A DNA stretch of 64,000 bases from Candidatus Parcubacteria bacterium (GCA_023128895.1 JAGMDC010000003.1:70514-134513); one strand, 5' to 3'; counted from the first letter of the stretch, positions 37-57,230 are shown. The notes: generated by a model from the sequence alone, not told the origin. Program-made: numbers and translations.

Positions 37-65
37 TTGACAAATTAGAAATAAAGAAGTATAAT
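37..65 (+). promoter_or_regulatory. sigma70 consensus promoter
   Basis: TTGACA(37-42)-17 nt-TATAAT(60-65) upstream of ORF 175. Confidence 0.85.
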
Positions 66-123
66 ATAATCAGCAATGATGATAATTTCGTCATATTAAA
101 ATTAAATAAGGATTGTTTTTAGA

Positions 124-176
124 ATTTTACATCACCGAATTGTCCGTCTTACGCGGACAGCTCGGTGATGTAAAAT
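124..176 (+). promoter_or_regulatory. 5'UTR hairpin sequestering SD and start codon
   Basis: Perfect 15-bp inverted repeat ATTTTACATCACCGA(124-138)/TCGGTGATGTAAAAT(162-176) plus inner stem; covers GGTGA and the AT of ATG. Confidence 0.7.
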
Positions 177-1275
177 GATAGTAATAGTCGGAGACCTACA
201 TCTTGTGGATGAGAGCGTAATGCCAAATATGCCATCAGCGACAATAGAAAAAATTTTCGCAAAAATAATCAAAAGTATAGAACAAACAAAACCAAACAGA
301 CTCACATTAGTTCTAAACGGAGACATCTTTGATACGCTTACTTCTGAACTGTGGCTCACAAATGAGTTCAATGGAGACACAGCGATAAAAGTGTTCCGGG
401 GTGTCCAAAAAACAGAAAGCGCGAAAATTTTCCAAAGAAAAATCAACAAACTTTGTTCAATGATTTCAGTAGAAATCCAGTATATCAGCGGTAATCACGA
501 TTTAACAAACGAATTTCCGCAATTGCGAAAAAAAATCAGCGATTTTCTTGGAATGGAAGTAGGAAAAAATATTTTCTTCGTAGACGAATTCTTTGACAAA
601 GCAACATCTGTTTACGCGACGCACGGGGACAAAAACGACGCATGGAAAATCTGGAAAACTAATTTTGGGAACCAAATGCAAATATGGTTCACAGTGAAAG
701 CATTGGTTGATATCAGAGACAAGACAGGCAACTTGAATTTCAAAAAAATCGCTAATGTCGGCGAAGTTCTTCCCAGAAAAAGAACTGAATTTATAAAAGC
801 AGTCCTGGGAGAGAAAGACGGAAACACAGCGAAAATAATAATAAGGCAGACAACAGAACAATTTTTCGCCAGTGATTCCACAAGAAACGCAATCAGAGCG
901 TTTTTCAATAAAAGACCAGTAATGGCGAAAATAACGGAAAAAATAGTTTGCAACAAAATAACTGCTGGGATTCTATCCCGCTTATTATTAGCATACTATT
1001 ACACAATAGAGAGAGATTTCAGAAACGCAAAACAAAAAAAGGAGATAAATAAATATCTCCGCGACAAAGGAATTCAAGCAAGATACATTGTCGTGGGGCA
1101 TACCCACGAAGAAGAACATTCAAAAATAGCGGGAACAGGCATAAAGTTCGTCAACCTCGGGTATTGTCAAAAACCCGGAGAAGGACTAGAAAAGTACAAT
1201 AAAATCAGAGGAAATATTTTTGTTTCCGACGAGTCATCCACAAAAATCATAAATATAAAAATCCCTGGCGCTTAA
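175..1275 (+). CDS. calcineurin-like metallophosphoesterase
   Basis: Motifs GDLH, NGDIFD, GNHD, HGD, GHTH in canonical order. Confidence 0.85.
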   Translation: MIVIVGDLHLVDESVMPNMPSATIEKIFAKIIKSIEQTKPNRLTLVLNGDIFDTLTSELWLTNEFNGDTAIKVFRGVQKTESAKIFQRKINKLCSMISVEIQYISGNHDLTNEFPQLRKKISDFLGMEVGKNIFFVDEFFDKATSVYATHGDKNDAWKIWKTNFGNQMQIWFTVKALVDIRDKTGNLNFKKIANVGEVLPRKRTEFIKAVLGEKDGNTAKIIIRQTTEQFFASDSTRNAIRAFFNKRPVMAKITEKIVCNKITAGILSRLLLAYYYTIERDFRNAKQKKEINKYLRDKGIQARYIVVGHTHEEEHSKIAGTGIKFVNLGYCQKPGEGLEKYNKIRGNIFVSDESSTKIINIKIPGA

Positions 1276-1322
1276 ACGGCTAAAATTGTTTTAAGTACCA
1301 GGGAAAATTTTTTTTACTAAAT

Positions 1323-7055: not shown

Positions 7056-7346
7056 TTACTCCAAGAACTTAATCAAAATTGCCGCAAACCATAATATAAA
7101 CAATGTGATGCTCCACCAAAAAAACTTCTTCTGTGCATTTTTATCAAGTACTGATTTCCCTTCTTCTTCTTGACCATAGAGTAAATGAAATGCGTTATCT
7201 ATTACATGACCAGAAATACCATAGATAAAAGTAACTAGACCATAATAAAAATAATCAGGACTCCAAAGTGCAGCGATAGAAAAAGCAAGTCCGAAAACCG
7301 CAATATTTAAAAAATAAGAAACCTTGTCATTTATTAATAAATTCAT
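7056..7346 (-). CDS. small hypothetical membrane protein (about 3 TM)
   Basis: 96-aa ORF with hydrophobic segments, 12 nt downstream of the HEPN-motif gene. Confidence 0.7.
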   Translation of the reverse strand: MNLLINDKVSYFLNIAVFGLAFSIAALWSPDYFYYGLVTFIYGISGHVIDNAFHLLYGQEEEGKSVLDKNAQKKFFWWSITLFILWFAAILIKFLE

Positions 7347-7358
7347 AAATTTATTTAC

Positions 7359-8006
7359 TTAATTATTGTTGCTCGACTTCTGATTGTTCTTTTTTGTCTT
7401 TTGCTTTTTCTCAATAATCTCAACAAAAGGAGAATCATTAACAATTTCTATTGTGCCATGCTTGTTAAATTTAGCCCATTGATAAATTCCTAAAATTTTT
7501 AAATAATCATTATAAAAATCCTCGGTTTTCTTTATGACATAATTGACATCCTCTCGGCTGAGATTGTTCCATATCTTTTTTACCTCGGGCAATGCTATCT
7601 TTTTATCACGGTGAGCAGACAATTTATTTCTTACTTTCCTATATTTTCCATTTTTTGAAAATTCTCTTAATTCTTGCAGAAATTGATTAATTTTTTTCAA
7701 TATCTCTTTTTGTTGTTCACATTTAATAGATTGGCATTCAATGATTAGATTTTTAAATTCTTGAAATTTATCATACATTGAACATATATCCATTATTATA
7801 TATTTAAGAATCGCTCTTTTTCTATGCGGATCCTTTTGCTCCGCATATATTTCACTAAGACATGAAACATCGTCGTATATTAGCCTAAAAAGGTAAAGTT
7901 GTTTCGTTAAAGATTCTTCCGGAAAAAATTTGCTTTCGTTATAATCGCTAAAAGGATGATAAATATCATCCCTATCTTTATTGTAAAAATAATTGCTTTT
8001 GTCCAT
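7359..8006 (-). CDS. putative HEPN-domain protein
   Basis: Helical-looking 215-aa protein with R-x5-H motif (VRNKLSAH). Confidence 0.6.
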   Translation of the reverse strand: MDKSNYFYNKDRDDIYHPFSDYNESKFFPEESLTKQLYLFRLIYDDVSCLSEIYAEQKDPHRKRAILKYIIMDICSMYDKFQEFKNLIIECQSIKCEQQKEILKKINQFLQELREFSKNGKYRKVRNKLSAHRDKKIALPEVKKIWNNLSREDVNYVIKKTEDFYNDYLKILGIYQWAKFNKHGTIEIVNDSPFVEIIEKKQKTKKNNQKSSNNN

Positions 8007-8064
8007 AATCTAAAATATTTATTTAACTTCTGCGTCTGGAATTTCAGAAGTTGCAATTATATAG

Positions 8065-9633
8065 TTATAACTCTGGAGTATTAGAATGCGATTCTTCTAA
8101 AATCGGCAAATAGTTTACATAACCTACGCACCTTATATCGTCGTTCCCATCATAAATCATGGATTCTATAATATTTTTATCTTGAGTCCCCCAATAATTT
8201 TCAGAGGCTGAAAAAGTGTTAATACTGCCATCTGATAATTTCAAAACTATATTACTCATATCAATAAAGGAATTGTATTTGATCGTAACTTCTGATGAAT
8301 CTTGACTCATAACTATGATATAAAAATTGAAGTAACCCGTATTATTGATTGAGTGTCCTTTATAAAAAAAATTATTTTTTATACAAACTTTAACATCATT
8401 ATCAGTAAATATTCTAAAACCATATGTATTTACAAACTTATTATAGTTAATATTAATATTTCCGGAAGGAAACGCCATCGTTGACTGTTCGGCTAAATTA
8501 ATAAGTTCAGAATGTTGTAAATGAAAATGTCCATTATGATTGCCACCAGGCCAAAACATAAGTCCATTTTTAACTATACAATACTCTAAATCTAAAAATG
8601 CACTATCATATCCGGTAATATGAAAAAAATCAGAATCATTTCCACCATCAAAAGTAATCCTATCCCCTTTAATACCATGGGCATATATCGTGCCGTTAAT
8701 TAAAAACATATCACCACTTGTAGGTTTTGTAACTATTACGCCCGGTTTAATAGTAAGCGTTACACCTAATGGTATCTGAACAGTGCTGGTTATTATATAG
8801 GGACTATTTTTTGTTGTCCAAATAGTATTTTCAGAAATTATACCGCCTACTTCAGTGCCCGCTATCATCTCTTTCTTATAGAAAACTTGAATCATATCGT
8901 CATAATAAGGTGCTTTATACTGATTGTCAGAATTTTTCACAAACACCCTTAAATGTATTGTTTCTAGGTTAAAGATGTCATTATCAATAGTTACAGTAAC
9001 TTGATCCTCTGTTTGCCAAGTATTTGGAAATCCCGTGCCAACAAATTGGTAAAGAACCGGATTAGCGATTATATTATTAATCTCAACCCTTATTGTAATA
9101 GTTTCTCCCTCCTTTAATTCTGGCCAAGGACTCAACCAAGTGGTATTTTTACCGTTATACTCTGATTGAAGTTGTACATTATCTTTGGTATCGGTCAGCT
9201 TAATTATAGTAGCGTATTTAGTTTTAGATACTTCTTCAGCTTTTTCTTCCTCAACTTCTGGAATAAATTCTGGCCCTGCGGTTTCTTCTTGGATTGGTTG
9301 AATCTCTGATTCAGTTTCTGTTTTTTCTGCTAATTCTTGGTCCTGTTGGACGATTTCGTCTTCATCTATTTTTTGTTGAAAAATTTCTTCCTCTGTTGGT
9401 TCATCTTCTGATTTTGGTTCTTGTCCATTTTGCAATTCTTCTTTTGCTTCCTCATCTTTTACAGTTATAATTTCCTTGTTTTGTTCTAATACTCCAGAAA
9501 TATCAGCGGTAATAGATGGCGATTTTTCCTGCCTATGTAAAACAACACCAGCTCCTACTGATGAGGCGACGATAACTATAATAGCAATTATTAAAATCGG
9601 TATTTGAATAAATCCTTTTTGACTATTCATCAT
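8065..9633 (-). CDS. surface protein with pilin-like N-terminus, acidic linker and beta-helix-like C-terminal domain
   Basis: QKGFIQIPILIIAII leader; E/Q-rich stretch; NTIWTTKNSPYII, LTIKPGV, ASENYWG motifs. Confidence 0.7.
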   Translation of the reverse strand: MMNSQKGFIQIPILIIAIIVIVASSVGAGVVLHRQEKSPSITADISGVLEQNKEIITVKDEEAKEELQNGQEPKSEDEPTEEEIFQQKIDEDEIVQQDQELAEKTETESEIQPIQEETAGPEFIPEVEEEKAEEVSKTKYATIIKLTDTKDNVQLQSEYNGKNTTWLSPWPELKEGETITIRVEINNIIANPVLYQFVGTGFPNTWQTEDQVTVTIDNDIFNLETIHLRVFVKNSDNQYKAPYYDDMIQVFYKKEMIAGTEVGGIISENTIWTTKNSPYIITSTVQIPLGVTLTIKPGVIVTKPTSGDMFLINGTIYAHGIKGDRITFDGGNDSDFFHITGYDSAFLDLEYCIVKNGLMFWPGGNHNGHFHLQHSELINLAEQSTMAFPSGNININYNKFVNTYGFRIFTDNDVKVCIKNNFFYKGHSINNTGYFNFYIIVMSQDSSEVTIKYNSFIDMSNIVLKLSDGSINTFSASENYWGTQDKNIIESMIYDGNDDIRCVGYVNYLPILEESHSNTPEL

Positions 9634-10288: not shown

Positions 10289-10972
10289 TCATACTCTGCT
10301 TAATCCCTCTTTCCATCCATTAATTTTTCTCCTCAAGCGAGTCCCCTTGTGCACCAAAACTCTTAAATTACCGTAATGAGTATCGTGATTTGGATAAATT
10401 CTTTTTGATTTAGCTTTTATCAAAGTTGTCTTGGTAAATTGCGACAAAGGAATCCCCGTCACATTTGACCAATACTTTTCTACTTTTTTTACTCTTTCTT
10501 TATGAACTTCGTTAATCCTAATAGATAAAGAAAATCTTTCTTTAGAAACTTTACAAATTTCTTCAAACCATTTCAACATTAATAAAACTATCCGCGGGTC
10601 TGAATTTACAAAACCAACTTGGTCATTGCTTGAATGATTATATCCTTCACTCCAATATATTGAAATTCCGCTTATAAAAAGGTCTCGCCTACTAATTTTG
10701 CCTACTTCCTTTACCCCTTCTTTCTTTAATTTGGCTGTTTCTTCTATTCTGGTCTTTCTCACCTTTTCTAAAAAAATCATTCTTCCTTTATAACTACCGG
10801 CGCTTTGTTTCTTCGCCAATCTTTCAATTTGTTCAGGGGCGAGGGATATATCTCGACACCAACTGCTTATAGTGCCGCTTTTCTGCATATCAAGTTTTCT
10901 CGCAATTTCACTTATACTAAAACCTTTCTTGCGAAATTCTTGCGCTAAATATTTTTTCTTAATCACTGCCAT
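10289..10972 (-). CDS. HTH plus degenerate LAGLIDADG-like protein
   Basis: N-terminal GFSISEIARKL..TISSW HTH; LFISGISIYWSEG and VGFVNSDPRIVLLMLKWF motifs; ATG 10972 lies just after the tRNA. Confidence 0.65.
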   Translation of the reverse strand: MAVIKKKYLAQEFRKKGFSISEIARKLDMQKSGTISSWCRDISLAPEQIERLAKKQSAGSYKGRMIFLEKVRKTRIEETAKLKKEGVKEVGKISRRDLFISGISIYWSEGYNHSSNDQVGFVNSDPRIVLLMLKWFEEICKVSKERFSLSIRINEVHKERVKKVEKYWSNVTGIPLSQFTKTTLIKAKSKRIYPNHDTHYGNLRVLVHKGTRLRRKINGWKEGLSRV

Positions 10973-10990: not shown

Positions 10991-11270
10991 TTGCGGTGCC
11001 TGGAATTGCACCAGGGTCTCGAGCTTCTTTTATATTAACCATTTGTTTCCAAATGGAATGGACTATCCCATCCCCCCGCTTACTTAAATGGGGGGCTCTC
11101 ATTATAGTCTCTGAACCTTCCGAGCGCTCAAAGCGTTGAGTGCTTGGCTTGGCTGCTGATTGTCCAATTAAGGAGTTCCCAGCAATTTCGAGAGTTTGTC
11201 TGCGGAATATTACTATTCCGAGCCACACAATCTGTATGGGGCTCGCAAGATACTACTTCTCCACACCGCT
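10991..11270 (-). tRNA. initiator-type tRNA-Met(CAT), intron-containing (exons 11270-11236 and 11026-10991)
   Basis: Spliced sequence AGCGGTG TGGAGAAGTAGTATCTTG CGAGC CC-CAT-AA GCTCG AGAC CCTGG TGCAATT CCAGG CACCGCA A; 1x72 mismatch, G2:C71, C3:G70, A11:U24. Confidence 0.85.
11027..11235 (-). ncRNA. group I intron, 209 nt, ORF-less
   Basis: 5' exon ends in U paired to IGS GTGTGGCTC; P (AAATTGCTGGGAA), Q (AATCAGCAG), R (GTTCAGAGACTA), S (GGGATAGTCC); P3 CTCTC/GAGAG, P7 GACTA/TAGTC; terminal G. Confidence 0.92.
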
Positions 11271-40802: not shown

Positions 40803-40821
40803 TGTTATAAACTACAAAACC

Positions 40822-41364: not shown

Positions 41365-41383
41365 AAATAATAATTTTCAATTT

Positions 41384-41770: not shown

Positions 41771-41824
41771 AATAAATTTAAAACTTAAAATTTGCCTGCC
41801 TGCTCGGTAGGCAGGAAACTTGAT

Positions 41825-42010: not shown

Positions 42011-42013
42011 AAA

Positions 42014-43653: not shown

Positions 43654-43664
43654 CGTTATATAAA

Positions 43665-44069: not shown

Positions 44070-44085
44070 ATACTGTGATTGCTAA

Positions 44086-44811
44086 TTAATCAAATTTTTC
44101 ACCTTTATATATCCATACTTTTATTCCAACAACCCCATAATTGCAATGAGCACTGGCTGTGCCATAATCAATTTCCGCTCTTAGTGTTTGCCTTGGTAAA
44201 GACCCGATTTTCAGCCATTCCTTGCGCGCAATTTCTTTCCCGTCCAACCTGCCGGCGACCTGAATCCGCGCGCCTTTTATTCCCTTTGAATTCATTATTT
44301 TGTCCAATCCCTGTTTAAGCGCCCTTCTGTATGGAAAACGTTTTTCCAATTGAGATGCCACCAATTGAGCCACCAAACTTGATTTTGTCCACGGCTCTCT
44401 AATTTCCTTAATGTCAATTTTTACTTTCTTGGTTTGTTTGGTGTCGCTTACGCTGATTTCTTTTTTTGCTTTTTCCTTGTTTTTTATTTTCTTGAGAGAA
44501 AGTGTCTCTTTCCTCCTGGAAATTTTAGAAATTTTTTGTTCTATTTTTTCTCTTAATTCTTCCACGCCCTTGCCGCCTCTCCCAATAATCAAACCAGGCC
44601 TTGAAGTATTTATAATAATATTTATTTTGTCAGGGGACTTTTCTATCTCAACGCTTTGCAGACCGCAGTCCTTTAACTGTTTTTCCAGAAAACTCCGTAT
44701 CACAAAATCCTCCTCTAAAAATTCTGCGAGATTTTTCTTTGTCTGCCACCTTGAATCCCAATCATTGGCATCTCTTAAACGATATGCTTTTGGGTGAACT
44801 CTATGAGACAT
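44086..44811 (-). CDS. rpsC: 30S ribosomal protein S3
   Basis: VHPKAYRL, RPGLIIGRGG, GRLDGKEIAR, GIKVWIYKG. Confidence 0.97.
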   Translation of the reverse strand: MSHRVHPKAYRLRDANDWDSRWQTKKNLAEFLEEDFVIRSFLEKQLKDCGLQSVEIEKSPDKINIIINTSRPGLIIGRGGKGVEELREKIEQKISKISRRKETLSLKKIKNKEKAKKEISVSDTKQTKKVKIDIKEIREPWTKSSLVAQLVASQLEKRFPYRRALKQGLDKIMNSKGIKGARIQVAGRLDGKEIARKEWLKIGSLPRQTLRAEIDYGTASAHCNYGVVGIKVWIYKGEKFD

Positions 44812-44813
44812 AA

Positions 44814-45356
44814 TTAAAATGCTTTTCGCCTAAACACTCTTTTTAATCCTGTTGCGCGCTCCGGCCTTTGTTTTTCAAATTCCGGCTTTATTTTTCGCTT
44901 CTTCACCTTAACAGGTATTTTTCTCTCTCTTTCTGCTTCTATCTTTTCTTTTGTCGGCTCCTCAACACCTTTTTTGGGCAAAATTTTCTTTTTCTTTTTT
45001 ATTTCTTTTTTCTCAATTTCATCCAATACCAAGGTAATATGCGAAGTCCTTTTCCGAATCTCATTAGCCCTGCCCCGTGATACTGGACGCCATCGTTTAG
45101 GTTTGGGGCCCTCGTCAACTAACAATTTAGAGATATAAAGCTCGGCAATATTTTCTATTTGAAAATTATTTTTTGCGTTGGCAATTGCGGAGTTTAATAA
45201 TTTCAACATAGGAATACTCGCTTTTTTATCCGCAAAATTCAAAATCTTTTGAGCTTTCTCAACTGATTTTCCTTTTATCAAATCAGCAATTAATCTTACT
45301 TTCCTTGGTGTAATATGTAAATAACTTAATTTCGCTTTTATAATCATAATTCTCAT
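44814..45356 (-). CDS. rplV: 50S ribosomal protein L22 with charged C-terminal extension
   Basis: [30 protein letters not shown]. Confidence 0.97.
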
Positions 45357-45649
45357 TTCTCTTGTTTCACTTTTGCTTCCTGCTCTCTCTGCATTTTGCC
45401 TCCATGCCTTACAAATTTTGTGGTAAAAGAGAACTCTCCCAACTTATGCCCCACCATATCTTCAGTGATATACACAGGAGCAAATTCTTTTCCATTATGG
45501 ACCCCAAAAGTAAAACCCACCATTTCAGGCGTGATAATACAAAAACGCGCCCATGTTTTAATAATGGTTTTATCTTCTTTTCTCAAATTGCTGATTTTCT
45601 TCATCAACTTCTCGTCTATATATGGTCCTTTCTTTAAACTTCTAGACAT
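45353..45649 (-). CDS. rpsS: 30S ribosomal protein S19
   Basis: [23 protein letters not shown]. Confidence 0.98.
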
Positions 45650-45665
45650 ATTCTATTTTTAAGTG

Positions 45666-45713
45666 AAGCGAGGGAAGTCCAAGTGAGCTTGCTCGCTTGG
45701 ACTTCAGAGCGAA
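45666..45713. repeat. short palindromic element with GCGAGG...GAGCGA ends
   Basis: GAAGTCCAAG/CTTGGACTTC stem flanked by motifs matching the ends of the 170-bp repeat. Confidence 0.65.
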
Positions 45714-45737
45714 CGCAGAAAATTTATCCCGCAGGGT

Positions 45738-46574
45738 TCATTTTCTTTTCTTTATTTTCCTTCTTCTAATAATAAACTTGTTTGTTTGTTTGTTCTTTTT
45801 TCTAGTTCTTGCGCCTAAAGCCGGCTTTCCCCACGGTGTCTTTGGATGCGGCATTCCAGCCCCTGATCTTCCTTCTCCGCCGCCCATTGGATGGTCGCAA
45901 GGATTCATAGCGCTTCCTCTCACTGTAGGCCTTTTTCCCATATGCCTTTTTCTGCCTGCTTTGCCTAATTTAATAAACCGATGTTCTGGATTGGAAACTA
46001 TTCCTATCGAAGCAAATCCTTGCATAGGAACTTTCCTAATCTCAGAAGACGGCATTTCCAAATGAATATATTTTCCCTCTTGGCCTAAAACTTTGGCTGA
46101 AGTTCCCGCGCCTCTCACTATCTGTCCTCCCTGCCCGGGACTAAGTTCAATATTGTGAACCATTGTCCCTGCTGGAATATTTCTCAATTCCATTCTATTG
46201 CCTGGTTTTAATTCCGTTTTTTTCGAAAAAATAATCTCATCCCCGACTTTCATATTCTGCGCGGCTAAAATATATTTTCTCTCTTTGTCTTTATACTCCA
46301 AAAGCGCAATAAAGGCAAATCGATTAGGGTCGTATTCTACGGCAATCACTTTCGCAGGCACATCTATTTTACTCTGCCCAAATTCAATAATTCTGTAAAT
46401 ATGTTTAGCGCCCCCTCCTCTGTGCCTCACTGTAATTCTGCCTGATAAATTTCTTCCTGATTTTTTCTTCAATGATTTAATCAGCGCCCTTTCAGGCTTT
46501 TTTTTAGTCAATCCAGAAAAATCCGCGCCTCTCGTCCCTCTTGTCCCTGAAGTTGTTGGTTTATATATTTTCAT
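45738..46574 (-). CDS. rplB: 50S ribosomal protein L2
   Basis: GRITVRHRGGG, EYDPNR, RPTVRGSAMNPCDHPMGGGEG. Confidence 0.98.
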   Translation of the reverse strand: MKIYKPTTSGTRGTRGADFSGLTKKKPERALIKSLKKKSGRNLSGRITVRHRGGGAKHIYRIIEFGQSKIDVPAKVIAVEYDPNRFAFIALLEYKDKERKYILAAQNMKVGDEIIFSKKTELKPGNRMELRNIPAGTMVHNIELSPGQGGQIVRGAGTSAKVLGQEGKYIHLEMPSSEIRKVPMQGFASIGIVSNPEHRFIKLGKAGRKRHMGKRPTVRGSAMNPCDHPMGGGEGRSGAGMPHPKTPWGKPALGARTRKKNKQTNKFIIRRRKIKKRK

Positions 46575-46578
46575 AATT

Positions 46579-46630
46579 ATGAGTGAGGGAGGAATACAAA
46601 AACTTGTTTTTGTATTCCAACCGAGCGAGT
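46579..46630. repeat. short palindromic element with GAGTGAGG...CCGAGCGA ends
   Basis: GGAATACAAAAA/TTTTTGTATTCC stem with the same terminal motifs as repeat copy 1. Confidence 0.65.
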
Positions 46631-46657
46631 AATTATGCGGCTTTGCCGCAATAAAAT

Positions 46658-47119
46658 TTATCGTGGAAGTAACTCTATCTTCTGTCCTTCCTTAACTTTT
46701 ACAATGGCTTTTCTATACCCCTGTTTCCAACCCATAGTTTTTCCAACCCGTCTTTTCCTTCTGGGAATATTAATCACATTAACCCTTACAACATCTACGC
46801 CGTAAACATCTTCCACTGCTTGTCTAATTTCCTGTTTGTTCGCTTTTTGCGCAACATTAAAAATATACTGATTTTTTTCAACCAAATCAGTTGCTTTTTC
46901 TGAAATATGAGGGATTTTCAATATTTTATAACTTATTCCTGTTTTTATTACTGATTTTCTTTTTTTAGCAACTATTTTCTTCTCTGCTGGCTTCTTTAGT
47001 TTCGCTGGCTTAACACCAACTCTTTCTTCTTTCTTTTCCTTTACTGCCTTTACTTCTTCTTTCTTTTCCTCTTTTATTTCCTCTTTTTTCTTTTTCCTTA
47101 AAAAATTAAATATACTCAT
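46658..47119 (-). CDS. rplW: 50S ribosomal protein L23 with charged N-terminal extension
   Basis: PHISEKA, ANKQEIRQAVE, YRKAIV. Confidence 0.95.
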   Translation of the reverse strand: MSIFNFLRKKKKEEIKEEKKEEVKAVKEKKEERVGVKPAKLKKPAEKKIVAKKRKSVIKTGISYKILKIPHISEKATDLVEKNQYIFNVAQKANKQEIRQAVEDVYGVDVVRVNVINIPRRKRRVGKTMGWKQGYRKAIVKVKEGQKIELLPR

Positions 47120-47125
47120 AAAATT

Positions 47126-47782
47126 TCATTTAACAAATGTTTTTTCTATTACTTTTATTGATGGCCTTGCCATCATAATATATTTATATTTTAAAATATC
47201 CAAACAATTCAAGTCTTTTGCCTGCATTACCGCTGTATCAGGAATGTTTCTCGCTGCTCTGACTATATTCTCGTCTTTTTCCGGAATAACAATCAAAAAA
47301 CTTGCTTTTTCTTTATTTTGTTTTGCTATTAAATTCGCGATTTCTTTTGTTTTTGGCTTGTCTAGCTTGAACTCGTCTAAAATAATCAACAACCCATTCT
47401 TTGCTTTTTGGCTTAAAGCCATAATCAGGGCTTTCCTTCTCATTTTTAATGGAATAATTTTCTTAAAATTTCGCTTATTTGTAGGCCCAAAAGTTATACC
47501 GCCGCCGCGCCATATAGGAGACCTGTTTGACCCTACTCTTGCCCTGCCTGTCCCTTTCTGGCGCCAGGGCTTTCGTCCGCCGCCTCTCACCTCTCCCTTG
47601 TCTTTTGTATGGGCTGAAACCTGCCTTCTATTCGCCATTTGCGATACAACCACCTGATGCACCAAATCAGAATTAAAATCCTCGCCAAACACCTTGTCCG
47701 GCAAATCCATGTTCTTTGTTTCATCTTTCTCGATTTTCTTGGGTTTATCTTTTTTTTGATTGTCTAATTGTGTTTCTGCCAT
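47126..47782 (-). CDS. rplD: 50S ribosomal protein L4
   Basis: EVRGGGRKPWRQKGTGRARVGS, WRGGG. Confidence 0.98.
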   Translation of the reverse strand: MAETQLDNQKKDKPKKIEKDETKNMDLPDKVFGEDFNSDLVHQVVVSQMANRRQVSAHTKDKGEVRGGGRKPWRQKGTGRARVGSNRSPIWRGGGITFGPTNKRNFKKIIPLKMRRKALIMALSQKAKNGLLIILDEFKLDKPKTKEIANLIAKQNKEKASFLIVIPEKDENIVRAARNIPDTAVMQAKDLNCLDILKYKYIMMARPSIKVIEKTFVK

Positions 47783-47798
47783 TGTTTTTTTTAATTTT

Positions 47799-48395
47799 TC
47801 ATCCTCTGATTTCCAGTAATGTGCCGCGCCTGCCGGGAACCGCGCCTTTTACAGCGATTAAATTATTCTCTTTGTCTATTTTAACTATTTTCAAATTCTT
47901 TACAGTTGTTCTGTCAGCGCCCATTCTGCCAGGCATTTTTCTTCCCTTGATAACTCTTTGCGGCCAAGCACTCCCCACTGACCCTATTGTTCTTTCTTCG
48001 TGTTTAGCTCCATGCGTCGCTTTCCTGCCGTGGAACCCATGCCTTTTTACGCCCCCTTGAAACCCCTTTCCTTTGGAAATTCCTGAAATTTTTACTTTGT
48101 CCATTAGGTCAAAAACTGAAACATCAATTGCATCGCCTTGTTTAATATCTTTAATATCCTGTTCAACAATTCTATATTCTCTAATGTATTTATATTCTTT
48201 GCCTTTTTCTGTTTTCTTTATATTTTTTGTTTTCTTATCAAAACCGATTTGTATTGCTTCGTATTCATCCGTGTCCTTTGTCTTGAGCTGCAATACCTTG
48301 CAGGGACCTGCTTCAATCAAAGTAACTGGAATTACATTCCCTTGTTCGTCAAAGAGCTGGCTCATTTCTAATTTTTTACCTAAAATAAATTTCAT
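47799..48395 (-). CDS. rplC: 50S ribosomal protein L3
   Basis: SKGKGFQGGVKRHGF, KMPGRMG, KGAVPG. Confidence 0.98.
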   Translation of the reverse strand: MKFILGKKLEMSQLFDEQGNVIPVTLIEAGPCKVLQLKTKDTDEYEAIQIGFDKKTKNIKKTEKGKEYKYIREYRIVEQDIKDIKQGDAIDVSVFDLMDKVKISGISKGKGFQGGVKRHGFHGRKATHGAKHEERTIGSVGSAWPQRVIKGRKMPGRMGADRTTVKNLKIVKIDKENNLIAVKGAVPGRRGTLLEIRG

Positions 48396-48526
48396 CTTTT
48401 TTTTCTAATCAAAAACTGAGCGCTAGCCCAGTTTTTAATATACAGACTAGTTTAATTTTTCATTTATCAATTTTGGAATATGTGCCTAAAACAATTGTCA
48501 TATTCTTAAAATTTATTCAAAAACAT

Positions 48527-48859
48527 TCACATTTTAATTTCAATATCCACGCCAGCAGGCAAAGTCAAATTTGTCAAAGCGTCAATAATCCTTGAATTTG
48601 GATTTAAGATGTCAATCAGCCGCTTGTGGGTTCTCATTTCAAACTGTTCTCTGCTGTCTTTATGGATAAAAGTAGACCTATTCACAGTATATTTGTGAAT
48701 TTCTGTTGGCAAAGGAATAGGCCCTAAAACCTCGGCTCCATAACGCAAAGCAGTCTCCACGATTTGTCGACTGCTTGTGTCAATTACTTTATGGTCGTAA
48801 GCCCGAAGTTTTATCCGTAATTTTGGCTTAACTTCTTCTGCTAATTTTTTTGTTGCCAT
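48527..48859 (-). CDS. rpsJ: 30S ribosomal protein S10
   Basis: [28 protein letters not shown]. Confidence 0.98.
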
Positions 48860-48903
48860 CTTAAAGAACTTTTGTCTAAATTATGAATTATGAATTCTTA
48901 ATT

Positions 48904-50103
48904 CTATTTTATGATTTTTGTTACTACCCCTGCTCCCACTGTTTTGCCGCCTTCTCTGATAGCAAATCTCTGCTGTTCTTCCATAGCAATAGGAACAATT
49001 AATTTGATTTTCAGAGTGGCCGTATCTCCTGGCATAACCATTTCTGTTCCTTCCGGCAAGACCACATCTCCCGTAACATCAGTTGTTCTGAAATAAAACT
49101 GCGGCTTGTATCCGCTGAAAAACGGAGAATGCCTTCCTCCTTCTTCTTTACTCAATACGTAAACCTCTCCATCAAATTCAGTATGAGGCGTAATGGTTCC
49201 CGGTTTTGACAAAACTTGGCCTCTTTCAACATCTTCTTTTTTAAGTCCGCGCAATAAAACCCCGACATTATCCCCTGCTCGCGCTTCGTCCAATGTTTTA
49301 TTAAACATCTCCATGCTCACCGCAACTGTTTTTTGGGTTGGTTTGATTCCAACAACCTCTATTTCGTCGTTTGAATGAATAACGCCTCTTTCAACTCTGC
49401 CCGTTGGCACAGTCCCCCTGCCAGCAATAGAAAACACATCCTCAACAGCCATTAAAAACGGCTTGTCAATGTCTCTTTCCGGTTCTGGAATAAATTCGTC
49501 CACCTTGTCCATCAACTCCAAAATTGGCTTTATATTTTCATCGTCAACAGATTTGCCTTCCAAAGCTTTTAACGCGGAACCTCTTATAATAGGAACTTTA
49601 TCTCCGGGATATTCATATTTGGTTAAAAGTTCGCGAATTTCCGATTCCACTAAATCAATAATTTCTGGGTCGTCCACTGCGTCGCATTTATTCAAAAATA
49701 CCACTAATGAAGGCAGGCCAACCTGGCGAGCCAAAAGAATATGCTCTCTTGTCTGCGGCATAGCGCCGTCAGGAGCGGAAACAACTAAAATCGCTCCGTC
49801 CATCTGCGCCGCGCCAGTCACCATATTTTTAATATAATCAGCGTGCCCTGGGCAATCAATATGCGCGTAATGGCGTTTTTCCGTTTCATATTCAACATGG
49901 CAGACATTAATAGTAACGCCGCGCTCTTTTTCCTCCGGTGCTGAATCAATCTCGCTCACGCCTTTTTCGCTCGCTTTCAGGCCTTTTAATTTAAGCGCGT
50001 GTAAAATCGCGGCTGTTAAAGTGGTTTTGCCGTGATCCACATGGCCAATAGTGCCGATATTCAAATGAGGTTTTACTCTCTCAAATTTTTCTTTCTCTGC
50101 CAT
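48904..50103 (-). CDS. tuf: elongation factor Tu
   Basis: [31 protein letters not shown]; start MAEKEKF. Confidence 0.99.
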
Positions 50104-50261
50104 GAAAAACTTAAAACTTGAAACATACCTGCCTGCCGATAGGCAGGAAACTTGAAACTTAATTAAAGGTTTCAAATTTTATATCTCAAATTCATAAAAT
50201 TATATTATGTTATATTATGTTAATATATCAAAATTAAAAAAAAAGTCAACAGTTATTCATC

Positions 50262-50561
50262 TTACACAGGTAAATTCTCAATATCTGCTTCTTCATCTTC
50301 TTCCTGGATAGGTATTTCTAAAAAATTCTTGCCTTCCTGGCTCAAACCTTCCTGCTCGCGCTCGCGTTCCTTGTCCTGCTCCTGCTTCTTATCCTGCTCA
50401 ATTATTAAATCCGCTTTGTCAAAAGGGTTGTTCTTATATCCTTCCACTATCTTTTTATAATCACCGAAACTCATCACAGTTAAAACAGGCCTGCCGTCCT
50501 CAACAATTATAAACTTGCCGCCGTCTTTTTCTATTAAATTTTTAATCTCATCTAAATTCAT
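50262..50561 (-). CDS. hypothetical protein (Phd/YefM-like N-terminus, acidic tail)
   Basis: KFIIVEDGRPVLTVMSFGDY resembles the Phd/YefM beta-beta-alpha pattern. Confidence 0.6.
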   Translation of the reverse strand: MNLDEIKNLIEKDGGKFIIVEDGRPVLTVMSFGDYKKIVEGYKNNPFDKADLIIEQDKKQEQDKEREREQEGLSQEGKNFLEIPIQEEDEEADIENLPV

Positions 50562-50728
50562 ATAATTTACTTATAGCAAACTTTCCAAAAAAAATCAAAT
50601 TATTAAATAAAAATTTTTACTGTCGAACAACAGCATCAAATAATTTCAAACCCATAGACCAGTCCGTAGGTCTATCTTTAAAACTAACAATTGGAATTCA
50701 AAAATTATTTCTCGCTCTCATCTTCATC

Positions 50729-50953
50729 CTAGTTTTCGCTCACTTTTTCTAATTTCTCGCGGGTTTCCTCTAATTCTTTTTGCTTTTTATTCTCTTCCGC
50801 TTCCTGAACAAGTTTCATCCTGGTGGTTTTTTCTAATTTCTCTTTATCCGGTTTCAAGCCCCCTTTTTCTTCTTTAGTTCCTCCCGTATCTTTTTCCACT
50901 AATCTTCTTCGAACTCCTTTAAAATAACTTTTCTCTAAAAAACCTCTTGGCAT
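50729..50953 (-). CDS. small charged hypothetical protein
   Basis: 74-aa K/E-rich ORF between fusA and tuf. Confidence 0.6.
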   Translation of the reverse strand: MPRGFLEKSYFKGVRRRLVEKDTGGTKEEKGGLKPDKEKLEKTTRMKLVQEAEENKKQKELEETREKLEKVSEN

Positions 50954-51118
50954 AATTTTTATAATTTTTTATTTATATTTTGAACCCGACCTTTTTCAAT
51001 CGATTTTTTGAATTCCTTATTTTTGTAATTCTGATATTCTCCATATTTAACATATTCTATCACAAATAGAATTTTATGGAAAACTAAAATGTCCCGAGAA
51101 ATATTCTCGGGACATTTT

Positions 51119-51174
51119 CTTATTCTATATTCTATATTCTATATTCTATATTCTATATTCTATATTCTATATTC
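51119..51174. repeat. heptamer tandem repeat (TATTCTA)n
   Basis: About 8 copies overlapping the fusA stop codon. Confidence 0.9.
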
Positions 51175-53272
51175 TCTTGCCTTCAATGATTTCTTGTGTG
51201 ATGTTTGCAGGTATCTCTTCATAATCGTCAAATTCCATTGTGAAATTGCCTCTGCCCTGCGTCAGAGAACGTAAAGCAGTAGCATACCCAAACATTTCAG
51301 ATAAAGGAATTTTCGCGCTTATAACTTTCGTATTCAACCTATCTTCTGTTTCTTCAATCTTGCCGCGTCTGCTGGACAAATCGCCGATAACATCGCCGAA
51401 AAATTCTTCTGGAATAACTACTTCTAATTTCATAATTGGTTCTAATAGATACGCTTGCGCGCGCTTAGCCGCGCTCTGCAAAGCCATTGACCCGGCAATT
51501 TTAAACGCGATTTCAGAAGAATCAACCTCGTGGAAAGACCCGTCATATAGGGCGCAGGACAAATCAATCAATGGATAACCAGCCACAACGCCTTTTGACA
51601 TTGCTTCTTTAATTCCTTTTTCTACCGCCGAAATAAATTCTTTTGGAATAACTCCTCCTTTTATCTCGTCAATAAATTCAAAGCCCTCTCCTCTTTCTTT
51701 TGGCTCAACTCTGACCCAAACATGGCCGTATTGTCCCCTGCCGCCTGACTGCTTAATGTATTTCGCTTCTGCTTGAGCTTCTGTCTTAATTGTTTCTTTA
51801 TACGCAACCTGGGGCCTGCCAACATTTGCTTCAACATTAAATTCTCTTTTCATTCTATCCACAAGAATATCCAAATGAAGTTCGCCCATTCCGGAAATAA
51901 TTGTTTCGCCGGTGTCCGGGTCTCCTTTAATTTTGAAAGTCGGGTCTTCGTCTGACAATTTTTTAAGCGCCAAGCCCATTTTCTCCTGGTCTGCTTTTGT
52001 CTTTGGTTCAATGCGGATGGAAATTACCGGCTCTGGGAAAGTAATCTCTTCTAAAATCACAGGAGCGTTTTCCGCGCACAAACTATTTCCAGTTCCAGTA
52101 TTTTTAAGACCCACTGTTGCCGCGATGTCGCCGGCAAATAATTCATCAACCTCCTCCCTTTCCGCGGCATGCATTCTCAAAATTCTTCCCAAACGCTCTT
52201 TTTCGCCAGTATTGGCGTTTACGATATAAGAACCCTTTATTATAGAACCGGAATAAACTCTGAAATATGTCAAGGTTCCCACATAAGGGTCTGCGGCGAT
52301 TTTGAAAGCCAAAGCGCAGAACGGTTCGTCATCGCTTGCTTTCTTTTCAACCTCCTTGTTTGTCTTGGGGTCTATGCCTTTAATTGGAGGCAGGTCAACA
52401 GGCGAAGGCAGGTAATCAACAGCAGCGTCCAATACCAGCTGAACTCCGGTATTTTTCAGCGCTGAACCGCAAAATACTGGAATCAGTTTATAGTCAATAG
52501 TTGCTTTTCTTAAAACTTGTTTGATTTTCTCAACAGGAATTTCTTTGCCGGCAAGATATTGCTCCAACATTTCCGCATCTTCCGCAGCAACTTTTTCAAT
52601 AAGTTTTTCGCGCCATTTTTTCGCGTCGTCTAATAAATCCGCAGGAACCTCTTCTTCCTTCACTTCCTCGCCTAACTTGCCCCCAAATCTCATTGCCTTC
52701 ATAGACAGCAAATCAATCACGCCTTTAAGATTTTCTTCCAAACCAATGGGAATCTGCATTGCTACAGCATTAGGGGAAAGTTTTTGCCCAATTGAAGCAA
52801 AACTCTTTTCAAAAGACGCGCCCATTCTGTCTAATTTATTTATAAAACAAATTCTTGGAACATTAAATTTATCTGCCTGTCGCCACACTGTTTCTGACTG
52901 CGGCTCCACTCCGGCAACTCCGTCAAAAACAACCACAGCGCCGTCCAGTACCCGCAGAGACCTTTGGACCTCCACTGTAAAGTCAATATGTCCGGGAGTG
53001 TCAATAATATTTATCCTGTGTTCATTGGTCTTGTCTTTTGTGGTATATTCTCTTGGAGACCAAAAACAAGTTGTTGCCGCGGAAGTAATGGTTATACCTC
53101 TTTCCCGCTCCTGTTCCATCCAGTCCATAACTGCCTCGCCCTCGTGGACTTCGCCGATTTTATGGGAAATTCCCGTGTAAAACAAAACACGCTCGGTAAA
53201 TGTTGTCTTGCCGGCGTCAATATGAGCTATTATACCTATGTTACGATATTTTTCTATTGAATATTTGCGCAT
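51167..53272 (-). CDS. fusA: elongation factor G
   Basis: [39 protein letters not shown]. Confidence 0.99.
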
Positions 53273-53413
53273 AAAATAATTACTACCACAAAGTCAGCAA
53301 AAAATAAATCAGAATTAATACTAAAATAAAAGTAAAAATGAAATCTATTGGACCAGCCATAAGAATAGAATTTAGAATATAGAATTTAGAAGAATTATTC
53401 CAGATTCTATATT

Positions 53414-53881
53414 CTATCTGGCGAAATGGGCGAAGGCGCGGTTTGCGTCTGCCATACGATGTGTGTCGTTTTTCTTTTTCACCGCGGATCCCTCATTACT
53501 AGACGCGGCAATCAATTCTTCCGCTAATTTTTCTTTCATTGGCTTGCCCTTTTTTGCCTTAGACGCGTTTATCAGCCACCTCATAGCCAAACTAATTTTC
53601 CTCTCCCCTCTCACTTCTCTTGGAACTTGGTAAACAGCTCCTCCAATTCTTTTTGACTTTACTTCCATATCTGGCGCGGCATTCGCCATTGCCAAATCAA
53701 AAATCTCTAATGGATCTTTCTTTGTTTTTTCTTTAATAATGTCAAAAGCGCTATAAACGATTTTTACAGCAATAGTTTTCTTGCCTTTGCGCATTATCTG
53801 GTTGATAAATTTGGCAACCATTACATTGTCATACACAATATCCCCTGGAATTATTCTTTTTGAAATTTTTTTGCGAGCCAT
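53414..53881 (-). CDS. rpsG: 30S ribosomal protein S7
   Basis: [30 protein letters not shown]. Confidence 0.98.
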
Positions 53882-53889
53882 AATAAATA

Positions 53890-54300
53890 TTATTTTGGTT
53901 TCTTGGTGCCATACTTGCTTCTTACTTGTTTTCGCCCTTCCACTCCGCCAGTATCCAAAACGCCCCTCACAATATGATACCGCACTCCGGGCAAATCCTT
54001 TACTCTGCCTCCCCTTAATACAACAACTGAATGCTCCTGTAAATTATGCCCAATGCCTGGAATATACGCTGTCACCTCCATTCCATTGCTCAACCGCACC
54101 CTTGCGACTTTGCGCATTGCTGAATTCGGCTTTTTGGGAGTAGTTGTAAAAACTTTTAAGCACACTCCCCTCTTGAAAGGAGAAGGATGTTTAATTGGCT
54201 TGTTTTTTAACACATTAAAACTGAAACTCAAAGCAGGCCTTTTAGTCGGCTTTTTCGCTGTTCTCCTATTTTTTTTAAGTAATTGATGAATTGTCGGCAT
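53890..54300 (-). CDS. rpsL: 30S ribosomal protein S12
   Basis: [34 protein letters not shown]. Confidence 0.99.
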
Positions 54301-54593: not shown

Positions 54594-55457
54594 CTATATT
54601 GTCTCGAGTTTTTTTACGAGTTTATCGACTCTCCTATCGAGTTTCCTTCTAGAAATTTTACCCGAATTCCATTTTTTAGAAAGTTCTATAATCTCTGCCC
54701 GTTCTCTGCCAATCACTATTACTCCCTTATCCCGCAATTTTTCATAAACTCGCGCAGGTTTCTTCAAACCTTTTCTTGGATAGGTTTGCCATGTCAGCAT
54801 ATGGTCCGCCGCTTTCATGATCAGCTTTATTTGCTCTCTGTCAAGCCAGTCAAATCCGAGAAACTTATCTACACTATCCAACAAATTTTCGTGCGCAAAA
54901 ATTTCATTTGCTAAACTCTCTACCGTGCCATGGCATACCATCTGATATATAATCTCCCGCAAGACTTGAGTTCTATACTCTTTCTCGTCTATCCCGACTT
55001 CCTTCACTGCTTCAATCATCTTCTCCACATTATGCGGAAAAGATAATTTACTCGTATTCAGAAACATCTCTTTCCACGGCTCTTTATCTAAACCCTGGCC
55101 TATTCTCTGCGAAAACTGGCTCACTGTTCTTACTTCCTCAACAGTGAAATGTCTGCGGATATCCCTGAACAAAAGGAGCAAACTCGTTCGTCCCAAACTA
55201 ACCATGTCTAATGTTGTGAGCAAACGCAAATCAATGTCTGCAGGAATTTTCAATATTGCTTCCAGCACATCTAGCCAATTTCTCTTGCGCCACGCGTCCC
55301 AAACTTTGCTAATTTGCTCATTTAAGAACAAATTCTTTTGCTCGCTGAAAAATTCCTCGCCCGCCGCGTCCAGAAATCCTATTTCTGAAAGATATGCAAA
55401 CTCTTCTTCTTTCAAAACCGATTTTGCTTTTATTTCTTCTTCCACTTTTATACCCAT
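54594..55457 (-). CDS. hypothetical protein, paralog B
   Basis: 287 aa; N-terminal ~130 aa nearly identical to 56024-56887; SD AAGGAGGT. Confidence 0.8.
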   Translation of the reverse strand: MGIKVEEEIKAKSVLKEEEFAYLSEIGFLDAAGEEFFSEQKNLFLNEQISKVWDAWRKRNWLDVLEAILKIPADIDLRLLTTLDMVSLGRTSLLLLFRDIRRHFTVEEVRTVSQFSQRIGQGLDKEPWKEMFLNTSKLSFPHNVEKMIEAVKEVGIDEKEYRTQVLREIIYQMVCHGTVESLANEIFAHENLLDSVDKFLGFDWLDREQIKLIMKAADHMLTWQTYPRKGLKKPARVYEKLRDKGVIVIGRERAEIIELSKKWNSGKISRRKLDRRVDKLVKKLETI

Positions 55458-55458
55458 T

Positions 55459-55650
55459 TTATACCTCCTTTTTTTCTTTCAAATTCTGCTCCCATAATTC
55501 ATCTCTTCTCTCTTTTTCCGCTTTTTCCAACAGGACTTCGCAGCGCTTCACATTTTCCTGCGCTTCCTCCAACTCATTTTTTTTCAACTCAACATATGCC
55601 TTAGCAAGCCCAACTCTGGCCCTGCAAGACTCAACCTCTCTTTCGCCCAT
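55459..55650 (-). CDS. small coiled-coil protein, paralog B
   Basis: 63 aa ending LWEQNLKEKKEV like 56891-57079. Confidence 0.7.
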   Translation of the reverse strand: MGEREVESCRARVGLAKAYVELKKNELEEAQENVKRCEVLLEKAEKERRDELWEQNLKEKKEV

Positions 55651-56023
55651 TTTTTTTCCTATCTTTTCTGATCAAAACACTTTCCTTAGTATGCTTTCCT
55701 CTACAAATTGTAATGTGCTTCTCTGATATCCATTATATTACAATTTTCTCCTAAATTGTCAAATAACTTTCAGCGCGCCGAGGCCACAGCGAAGTGACCT
55801 CGGCAGAATACCTTCGCTTGATGGTGGGGTATTAAAAATGTATCCCTGAGGTACATTTGTAAAAAAAATTGCCCCAAATAGGATGCATTTTTCTGCTCGC
55901 TCCTGCCCGCAACGCTTCGCGTAGCGATGCAGGCGGGCGGAAAAGTAAATAAACTCGCTTCGCTCGCTTATTTTCTTTTCGCTCACTTCTCAAAAAAATG
56001 AGGACGCAGCGCGCCCCATCATA

Positions 56024-56887
56024 TTATTTTATTTCTATCGCAAGCCCGGCTTTCTTGATTACCCGCTTGACTTTCCTGACCATTTTTTCATATGAGAATT
56101 TATTTCTGTCGTATCCGTCGCGAATCTCTATTATCTTCTCTCTCGCTTCACCAATCCAGACATCGTGTCCCTCTTCTATTAGCGTTTTATACACATTGCA
56201 CGCGGCTCTAAAACTCTTTCGCGACAGCAGAGTATCACCTGCTTGTAACAGTTCTCTTGCGTGCATCTGTTGCCCGTGCATATACTTATCCATATATGCC
56301 ACAATTTCAACAAAATCACTGTTACCCTCTAGATATTCAACCAAACCTTGGTTTTCCTTGGTTATTTCAATCATGTGTTCCCAAATTACTTGTATATACT
56401 CGTCTTTGTCTATCCTTGTTTCCGCTACTGCTTCAATCATCTTTTCTATGCCGTCCTCCGCATCTGGAAAATACTTTCTTGCCATTTCCAGAAACATCTC
56501 TTTCCACGGCTCTTTATTTAAATCCTGACCTGCTCTCCGCGAAAACTGACTCACTGTTCTTACTTCCTCAATAGTGAAATGTCTGCGGATATTCCAGAAC
56601 AAAAGGAGCAAACTCGTTCGTCCCAAATTAACCATGTCTAATGTTGTGAGTAAACGCAAATCAATGTCTGAATCAATGTCTGCAGGAATTTTCAATATTG
56701 CTTCAAGCACGCCTAGCCAATTTCTCTCGTACCACGCGTCCCAAACTTTGCTAACTTGCTCATTTAAGAACAAATTCTTTTGCTCGCTGAAAAATTCCTC
56801 GTCTGCCGCATCCCAAAACCCTACTCCTAAAAGATACGCAAACTCTTCTTCTTTCAAAACCGATTTTGCTTTTATTTCTCCTACCAT
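56024..56887 (-). CDS. hypothetical protein, paralog A
   Basis: 287 aa; SD AAGGAGGT. Confidence 0.8.
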   Translation of the reverse strand: MVGEIKAKSVLKEEEFAYLLGVGFWDAADEEFFSEQKNLFLNEQVSKVWDAWYERNWLGVLEAILKIPADIDSDIDLRLLTTLDMVNLGRTSLLLLFWNIRRHFTIEEVRTVSQFSRRAGQDLNKEPWKEMFLEMARKYFPDAEDGIEKMIEAVAETRIDKDEYIQVIWEHMIEITKENQGLVEYLEGNSDFVEIVAYMDKYMHGQQMHARELLQAGDTLLSRKSFRAACNVYKTLIEEGHDVWIGEAREKIIEIRDGYDRNKFSYEKMVRKVKRVIKKAGLAIEIK

Positions 56888-56890
56888 ATC

Positions 56891-57079
56891 TTATACCTCC
56901 TTTTTTTCTTTCAAATTCTGCTCCCATAATTTATCGTCTTCCTCTTTTTCCACTTGTTCTAATTGTCCTTTCCAATACGCCAAATCTTCCATCGCTCCCT
57001 CAAATGCCACTCTTTTTCGCTCAACATCCATCTCTGCGGCCTCAACCATACGCTTACAATGCTCTTTTTTTTCTTCCAC
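56891..57079 (-). CDS. small coiled-coil protein, paralog A
   Basis: GTG start 8 nt after GGAGG; 62 aa. Confidence 0.7.
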   Translation of the reverse strand: MEEKKEHCKRMVEAAEMDVERKRVAFEGAMEDLAYWKGQLEQVEKEEDDKLWEQNLKEKKEV

Positions 57080-57230
57080 TTTTCATGCCTCCTTTTTTTT
57101 CTTTCATTATAGCACTCGCCTCAATATGCTTGCCTCTACAAATTGTAATGTGCTTCTTTGGTATCCATTATATTACAATTTTCTCCCAATTTGTCAAATA
57201 ACTTTTAGTGAATTTCACTCCCAAGCACAA

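Follow-up and report, generated by a model that had tools for sequence, protein, structure and literature searches.

Strong Shine-Dalgarno leaders on accessory genes of a parcubacterium lacking the anti-Shine-Dalgarno: candidate messages for the ribosomes of an archaeal host

Why should a bacterium whose 16S rRNA has lost the anti-Shine-Dalgarno keep strong Shine-Dalgarno (SD) sequences in front of a particular set of its genes? The question is raised by a 64,000-nt stretch of DNA from Candidatus Parcubacteria bacterium (hereafter the window), which corresponds to C5:70514-134513 of a 741-kb genome (G000; 11 contigs, completeness 96.6%). A sequence-only reading of the window had set SD-less core genes against SD-led accessory units, and offered three explanations for the latter: foreign genes under native promoters, an SD-dependent regulon or, speculatively, mRNAs made for translation by host ribosomes. 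The parcubacterial origin is borne out by rpS3, whose closest named relatives are Ca. Nealsonbacteria (identity to named records ≤60%). The archaeal-type transcription factor TFB of one family member has exactly the sequence of a protein deposited under the name 'Minisyncoccales bacterium', and RNA runs listed as coming from the same sample carry the label cold seep metagenome. As to the ribosome, the single small-subunit (SSU) match ends in GGATCA-TAACAT and has no anti-SD (CCUCC), as read from the gene sequence, not the mature end. The sequence pattern described below is firm, while the mechanism that we favour, in which SD-led mRNAs made by the parasite would be translated by the ribosomes of an archaeal host, stands at about even.

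SD strength was expressed as pairing energy with the canonical anti-SD (in kcal/mol; strong being ≤-8.4), for which the textbook sequence was used, in agreement with Amin et al. The 707 genes were called by a hexamer model blind to SD motifs, and the main counts rest on these unedited calls. Pairing energies are bimodal: 61/707 genes reach -8.4, compared with 16 in a control window 40 nt further upstream and a mean of 11.8 (maximum 17) in 30 shuffles, and 35 genes reach -12 where shuffles give 1.1. The scan by gene class that had been called for finds unequal frequencies, since strong SDs precede 6/379 genes common to the sampled relatives and 55/328 genes that are not shared (p=8e-14), a group that includes some core genes because relatives were only partly sampled. 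The absence of SDs that characterizes anti-SD-less Parcubacteria therefore holds for the shared genes, but not for those 55 others.

Within the window, the features concerned are the following.

37-1275, + strand: SD-led cassette for a metallophosphoesterase (175-1275), with sigma70 promoter at 37-65, 104-nt leader and GGTGAT SD.
21138-22409, - strand: SD-led cassette for an archaeal-type geranylgeranyl (DGGGPL) reductase (22304-21138), with promoter at 22409-22380, 5' hairpin, RGYAC motif, SD and terminator-like hairpin.
22556-23304, - strand: SD-led cassette for a TPR protein (start 23185), with promoter at 23304-23276 and a 5' hairpin leader as in the reductase.
24802-25296, - strand: SD-led membrane-anchored protein (25203-24802) with a weak promoter, weakly paralogous to a GCID lipoprotein encoded at another site of the genome.
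33921-34490, - strand: SD-led orphan, last of four tandem cassettes, with no clear promoter and a terminator-like hairpin.
34631-35089, - strand: SD-led orphan cassette (start 35026), promoter at 35089-35061, a paralogue of 35960.
35172-35483, - strand: SD-led orphan cassette (start 35426), promoter at 35483-35455.
35571-36019, - strand: SD-led orphan cassette (start 35960), promoter at 36019-35991.
39878-40164, + strand: SD-led small membrane protein (start 39925), an antisense insert in the ribosomal-protein cluster, with promoter at 39878-39905 and terminator.
54594-55762, - strand: two-gene cassette of a 63-aa open reading frame (ORF; 55650, weak SD) and a 287-aa orphan (55457, strong SD), with promoter at 55762-55735 and terminator.
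56024-57197, - strand: duplicate two-gene cassette of a 62-aa ORF (GTG 57079) and a 287-aa orphan (56887, 56% identical to 55457), with promoter at 57197-57170 and terminator.
35999-54300, - strand: SD-less ribosomal-protein/translation-factor cluster with AU-rich leaders, in which only rplE at 42571 reaches -8.5.
7056-9633, - strand: tRNA-Asp island of three accessory genes, SD-less by their pairing scores.

Twelve of the 13 SD-led starts originally named pair at -9.1 to -12.3, the weak one being 55650 (-4.2). They are not all solitary: 55650 and 55457, like 57079 and 56887, form two-gene units, which leaves 11 units. The TPR gene is indeed SD-led, but its most likely start is ATG 23185 rather than GTG 23200, since an SD is found 9 nt upstream of this ATG, which is also where the alignment with the G005 orthologue begins. 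A sigma70 promoter of the TTGAC type (score at least 7) precedes 9/11 units, that of 25203 being weak and none being found for 34490, and a hairpin followed by a U-run lies after 10/13 ORFs (weak at 175), with none at 23185 or after the first genes of the pairs. The 5' hairpin of 22304 and 23185 was confirmed and recurs in another genus, where each side differs by one change. Likewise, rpsL, rpsG, fusA, rplB, proS, murA and mreB (core genes of the window being named from their translations) are SD-less as described, as are the three genes of the tRNA-Asp island, every score lying above -4.2; of the 72 genes that were called in the window, the core genes that deviate are rplE (-8.5), dnaK (-7.8) and glyS (-7.3). 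The island genes are accessory and have no SD, so accessory status by itself does not give one.

The pattern is genome-wide: about 60-70 accessory genes carry a strong SD in sigma70-promoter/terminator cassettes, and the distinct transcript class first proposed from the window is supported. For motif and annotation work, 7 starts were moved, 3 ORFs added and 2 removed by hand, giving an SD set of 67 genes from which two strong-scoring rows (a gene fragment and rplE) are excluded. Strong sigma70 promoters precede 33/52 SD genes and 68/333 SD-less ones, and a U-run lies 3' of the stop in 40/54 and 56/287, respectively, a scan that supersedes an earlier, too strict terminator search (15/54 vs 9/70). 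Across five genomes, the start lies within 12 nt of the -10 box in none of 73 promoter-bearing SD genes compared with 64/210 SD-less ones. SD-class proteins more often have no Pfam match (54/91, against 14/70 random SD-less proteins scanned at a stricter threshold), their genes more rarely have a reciprocal match in relatives (6/69 vs 347/589 others), and their codon use is distinctive, with fewer U-ending codons in 6/7 genomes and more ATA in 7/7. On 9/11 contigs, SD genes stand scattered between core genes; this, and the lack of virion families among the 91 Pfam-scanned proteins, led us to reject a prophage or integrated archaeal element.

Could the bacterium's own ribosome nevertheless read these signals? 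CCTCC is absent from all 20 readable 16S tails among 30 loci and, order-wide, occurs in 3/108 tails from 104/201 genomes (counted by eye with a pattern that misses some tails). The SD motif is the exact complement of the canonical 16S tail at 4-11 nt spacing, and the complement of the genome's own tail has a flat profile with no peak upstream of starts, on which ground pairing of that tail with leaders was rejected. An SD-dependent regulon on the own ribosome, one of the explanations first offered, is thus not possible by ordinary base pairing, because the tail lacks CCUCC. Loss of the anti-SD in part of the Parcubacteria is published (Tsurumaki et al., 2022, PMC9297842), and 128 anti-SD-less taxa have been listed (Amin et al., 2018, PMC6107228). 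These resemble the present genome in a 16S tail without CCUCC and in most genes lacking an SD; however, SD helices are thought not to form there and the portions of these works that were available describe no SD-led class, whereas in the present genome a strong and conserved SD is retained by one gene in ten. Bacteroidia likewise combine SD-blind bulk translation with SDs on selected genes such as rpsU, but they keep an anti-SD hidden by bS21 (PMC13000453), whereas here the anti-SD is gone, bS21 (PF01165) was not found in the 96.6% complete genome and dozens of accessory genes are concerned; a sequestered anti-SD of that type was rejected on these grounds. A trans-acting RNA was also considered. 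At L040:18258-18435 (+; contig C4 of G000), directly after SD-led nikR and followed by an aberrant tRNA whose anticodon loop has 6 nt, a sigma70 promoter precedes a folded RNA of about 105 nt with CCUCCUAA in its top loop. Odd tRNA-like RNAs lie behind other leaders in G001 and G006, where the loop word is absent, and as a general solution such an RNA was rejected, this being a single candidate in G000 that was not found in 7 family genomes. In three genera the leader contains a copy of the anti-SD that could mask the SD of its gene by forming a long hairpin with it (L035:15967-16030; L158:13239; L171:2357).

Conservation indicates that the SDs are kept by selection. They are retained by orthologues of 30-48% identity in other genera and families, and in another genus the genes for the reductase and the TPR protein have preserved their promoter, 5' hairpin and SD alike. 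The clearest family is an SD-led membrane protein of the SPFH type (C9:12603-13835, outside the window), head to head with genes before virB4, whose Atlas clusters are mostly Minisyncoccota. It was found in 36/201 genomes of the order (1e-10) and not in 200 class-wide genomes at 1e-15. Among 30 loci from the 36 matching genomes (29 with a readable start; seven had built the profile), an SD precedes the first ATG in 23/29 copies, and 18/29 lie within 1.5 kb of virB4 or the genes before it. The two adjoining genes, probably PrgI/VirB3 and TrsD to judge from gene order (cf. PMC12102498), have an SD in 0/18 and 0/13 cases. A small SD-led family, A1, is conserved in three genomes, with one metagenome locus matched; it has no Atlas entry and a fold search gave no match at E≤0.001.

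An informative control is provided by SepRS and SepCysS, which score above the NCBIfam cut-off and flank tRNA-Cys (L060:14603-17314, -), an arrangement already known from Parcubacteria (PMC5424206). CysRS was not found in the genome, leaving this pair as the only route to Cys-tRNA found, and the locus has native, SD-less leaders. Archaeal-type genes whose translation has to take place in the bacterium are SD-less in this case, and archaeal origin is therefore insufficient to explain an SD.

The class extends to relatives. It is present in the single-contig genomes G037 (15/178 genes, control 6) and G038 (28/255, control 11), of about 200 kb each and each with one anti-SD-less SSU match, as well as in G005 (22/362, control 1), G004 (17/377, control 7), G029 (16/144, control 3) and G022 (15/109, control 5), the contigs of the last two having been picked for a match. 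Loci surrounding rpS3 in 75 named relatives show no excess (32 vs 79 in the control, of 1906 genes), as expected for core regions. Flavour also varies: in five genomes with TFB or an archaeal lipobox, 74/120 SDs are of the GGAGG+TG type, compared with 6/41 in G037 and G038, which use AAGGAGG, although five and two genomes are compared and, being relatives, they are not independent. This split parallels that between euryarchaeal and bacterial motifs in Table S3 of Amin et al. (2018, PMC6107228), six rows of which agree with the earlier statement that GGTGA/GAGGTG-type SDs are euryarchaeal. In G038, ten small SD-led cassettes are clustered in tandem (L316:11297-16926), and an SD-led reverse transcriptase lies at L324:17466-18713.

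The genome also encodes a full-length archaeal TFB (C5:35802-36710, outside the window), with Zn ribbon, B-reader and two cyclin repeats, the last helix being diverged. It emerged from a scan, at strict thresholds, of about 415 remaining proteins of 90 aa or more, and scores 270 against NCBIfam PRK00423, below the cut-off of 384. TFB and TBP form a textbook pair; TBP was not found in the genome. TFB occurs in 16/101 relatives, beside the same two genes in all 7/7 family genomes that have it. In a tree of 63 rows, the TFBs of this family are nested with those of anaerobic methanotrophic archaea (ANME)-1 (clade support 100/99), while copies from other families fall outside that clade on long branches; the tree is midpoint-rooted and sampled from hits to the G000 query, and omits the truncated copies of G007, G299 and G324 as well as G251. 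ANME-1-like methane oxidisers are hence the probable hosts, as judged for this family from the TFB tree. Of 19 TFB genes, 13 are SD-led (-7.9 or better) behind a sigma70 promoter, with starts picked by eye. TFB tracks the SD class: GGAGGTGA-ATG sites have a median of 15 in 9 TFB genomes (7 of them one family) vs 3 in 32 others, and G251, the sole TFB carrier among 250 class genomes, also has the highest SD count. A viral search, which covered close relatives only, found no viral relative of TFB, and an archaeal TFB inherited in bacterial chromosomes is surprising by whatever route. Additional cyclin-like repeats or tails extend the TFBs of G022, G028 and G343 to 420-550 aa (L250, L248, L249, L260), and copies are in tandem in G305 and G343.

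Best-match taxonomy of the remaining cargo, as had been suggested, reveals archaeal affinity in the reductase and in NCBIfam models. Among 120 reductase matches listed, all 27 that are organism-named come from archaea (38-42% identity), and best models for other SD-led genes include methanogen thymidylate synthase and Sso10a (both below cut-off) and NikR. Further SD-led genes encode a dCTP deaminase-like partner of the thymidylate synthase, a HEAT protein, enzymes of NAD salvage and numerous small membrane proteins, and pyrD/E/F and purB/C belong here as well. The lipobox GC[I]D, taken to be the euryarchaeal form, is found in 3/61 SD genes and 0/595 SD-less ones (5/67 and 4/589 by a looser rule), and neither Lgt nor LspA was found in the genome. 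The cargo thus looks host-directed (lipid reductase, NikR, Sso10a-like protein, archaeal-type lipoproteins). Recruitment of foreign genes under native promoters is true as an origin, but leaves the retention of the SD unexplained. Tetraether lipid synthase Tes is also encoded in this Candidate Phyla Radiation (CPR) genome (L056:4676-6202, -), above the NCBIfam cut-off and SD-less.

An SD set on archaeon-like genes in an anti-SD-less cell suggests messages meant for host ribosomes. The own ribosome would read AU-rich or near-leaderless mRNAs, as the core leaders imply, while from a second gene set the cell's sigma70 polymerase would make, at strong promoters, short mRNAs that end at a terminator and whose A-rich leader holds an SD of euryarchaeal style. 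The conserved SD and the absence of an own anti-SD point to a second reader, for which the host would be the only source, and these mRNAs may therefore be addressed to the anti-SD-bearing ribosomes of the host archaeon, which for this family would most likely be a relative of ANME-1. Given bacterial promoters, it is RNA rather than DNA that would have to meet the archaeal ribosome. Crossing might occur at the contact site, plausibly (the SD-led SPFH gene lying in that locus) through the relaxase-less type IV secretion system (T4SS), although this route is speculative. Once made there, the proteins would act on the host much as viral auxiliary genes do: TFB, NikR and the Sso10a-like protein would readjust its transcription, others would increase its nucleotides and NAD or change its lipids, and a membrane scaffold would form where the two cells meet, a host-side role of SPFH being speculative. 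Loss of the anti-SD might even serve as a firewall that keeps the parasite from reading imported host mRNA (again a speculation). A bolder version, to which we give somewhat less than an even chance, is that some Minisyncoccales behave as cellular 'mRNA viruses', sending dedicated mRNAs with host-type signals through the T4SS for the host to make a replacement TFB, metabolic boosters and an SPFH scaffold; if true, hosts would be archaeal here and bacterial in other lineages, and SD flavour together with TFB clade would predict the host from the genome.

Export to the host, speculative when first raised, gains indirect support from TFB, lipoproteins without Lgt/LspA, the SPFH gene in the T4SS locus and the SepRS control, and stays an interpretation of sequence. 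Viral auxiliary and host-takeover genes are typically small orphans, nucleotide and NAD enzymes, and a host-type transcription factor, with host-type translation signals. The SD-led set shares these traits but, unlike viral auxiliary genes, its members sit singly across a cellular chromosome behind the bacterium's own sigma70 promoters. The relaxase-less T4SS of Patescibacteria (PMC12102498) is likewise chromosomal, and SPFH is not mentioned in the part of that paper available. Strain OT8, a cultured Minisyncoccota parasite, sends tubes into its host, whose RNA it takes up (bioRxiv 10.64898/2026.06.21.733656), which provides a physical RNA route between parasite and host; the flow described is from host to parasite, and the accessible text of the preprint does not mention SDs. 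Nealsonbacteria, Minisyncoccus and Yanofskybacteria, of the same broad lineage, live on archaea, with a lowered ribosome signal in methanogen hosts (PMC10936435, PMC12281837, 10.1101/2022.04.20.488981); the SD is not mentioned in the available sections of these reports, and the host here is, by our estimate, ANME-1-like. A literature search, with subscription journals mostly uncovered, found no report of an SD-led class in anti-SD-less CPR bacteria, of a CPR TFB or of parasite-to-host mRNA, nor any paper linking such a class to TFB or a T4SS in CPR. The pattern bears on how CPR bacteria exploit their hosts and on the cargo of a conserved relaxase-less T4SS, and a conserved SD beside a non-pairing own ribosome yields a list of candidate effectors from sequence alone; the mRNA route, if true, would be cross-domain gene expression by a cellular parasite.

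Several observations weigh against translation by the host. To our knowledge, no T4SS has been shown to export mRNA. No export motif is common to all leaders; RGYAY occurs in 19/69 vs 3/130 leaders, but was picked post hoc and is significant only in G000 and G005. The TFB gene of G000 itself is SD-less (-1.1), as are 5 other TFB copies, so that an SD and a target in the host do not strictly go together, and the SPFH gene of G037 has no SD at its called start (-4.2). Pathways are split, purB and purC being SD-led but not purM and purL, and the reductase but neither Tes nor the prenyl enzymes. A number of the SD-led enzymes are commonplace or of bacterial type (PyrF and the quinone-dependent PyrD), and the 54 proteins without a Pfam match count here too. 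The class is patchy, with no excess of GGAGGT-ATG over the reversed control in near-complete G041-G043 and G044, although the same looser pattern is in excess in G045. G251 and G264 have the class together with an intact anti-SD, which shows that anti-SD loss is not required for it and would allow their own ribosomes to read the SD. Finally, the published RNA traffic runs from host to parasite, in a different class and with a bacterial host (bioRxiv 10.64898/2026.06.21.733656).

A rival reading is that the own ribosome translates the SD-led mRNAs and the SD-like word is a label for a protein or adaptor RNA (for timing, stability or routing to secretion), the proteins being exported or used at home. 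SD-less TFB copies must after all be made somewhere, and the split purine pathway, the anti-SD kept in G251 and the CCUCCU-bearing loop RNA of G000 fit as well. We nevertheless consider it unlikely, as the motif exactly complements the 16S tail at 4-11 nt spacing and shifts in flavour between lineages, the loop RNA is found in no other family genome, and lipoboxes are present while Lgt and LspA were not found. T4SS protein effectors carry a positively charged C-terminal signal; membrane helices occur in 42/149 proteins of the SD class, and the soluble ones lack a basic tail of this kind.

Host ribosomes drawn into the parasite, or into a shared host-cytoplasm junction, might instead translate mRNAs that never leave. 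This would explain an SD without an own anti-SD equally well and agrees with the fall of host rRNA and the appearance of host RNA in attached parasites, as reported; imported RNA is, however, described there as food. TFB, NikR and the lipoproteins would still need to reach the host, and archaeal ribosomes require their own factors, which makes this alternative quite improbable. That the SDs are functionless remnants of genes captured recently from archaea or archaeal viruses is less probable again, and largely refuted already by their conservation in diverged orthologues: rapid turnover of the class and its own codon bias are in its favour, but the nearest named archaeal relatives are 38-47% identical, native sigma70 promoters and shared leaders directly precede the SD, it persists over many families in the CPR-specific SPFH genes, and SepRS/SepCysS have lost it. 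A second, unassembled 16S gene with an anti-SD, or mis-binned archaeal DNA, deserves hardly any credence, since even though the genome is an 11-contig bin and G388 has two different 16S tails, SD and core genes alternate along the contigs, the synteny of TFB extends across the family, and the single-contig genomes G037 and G038, each with one SSU match and no anti-SD, have the class.

Finally, the window holds an initiator-like tRNA-Met(CAT) at 11000-11270 (-), missed by ARAGORN, whose gene is split by a group I intron (Rfam 11039-11248) and whose anticodon stem, examined by eye, is without the three G-C pairs typical of initiator tRNAs. A 227-aa ORF (10289-10972, -) sits between this intron-bearing tRNA and tRNA-Met.

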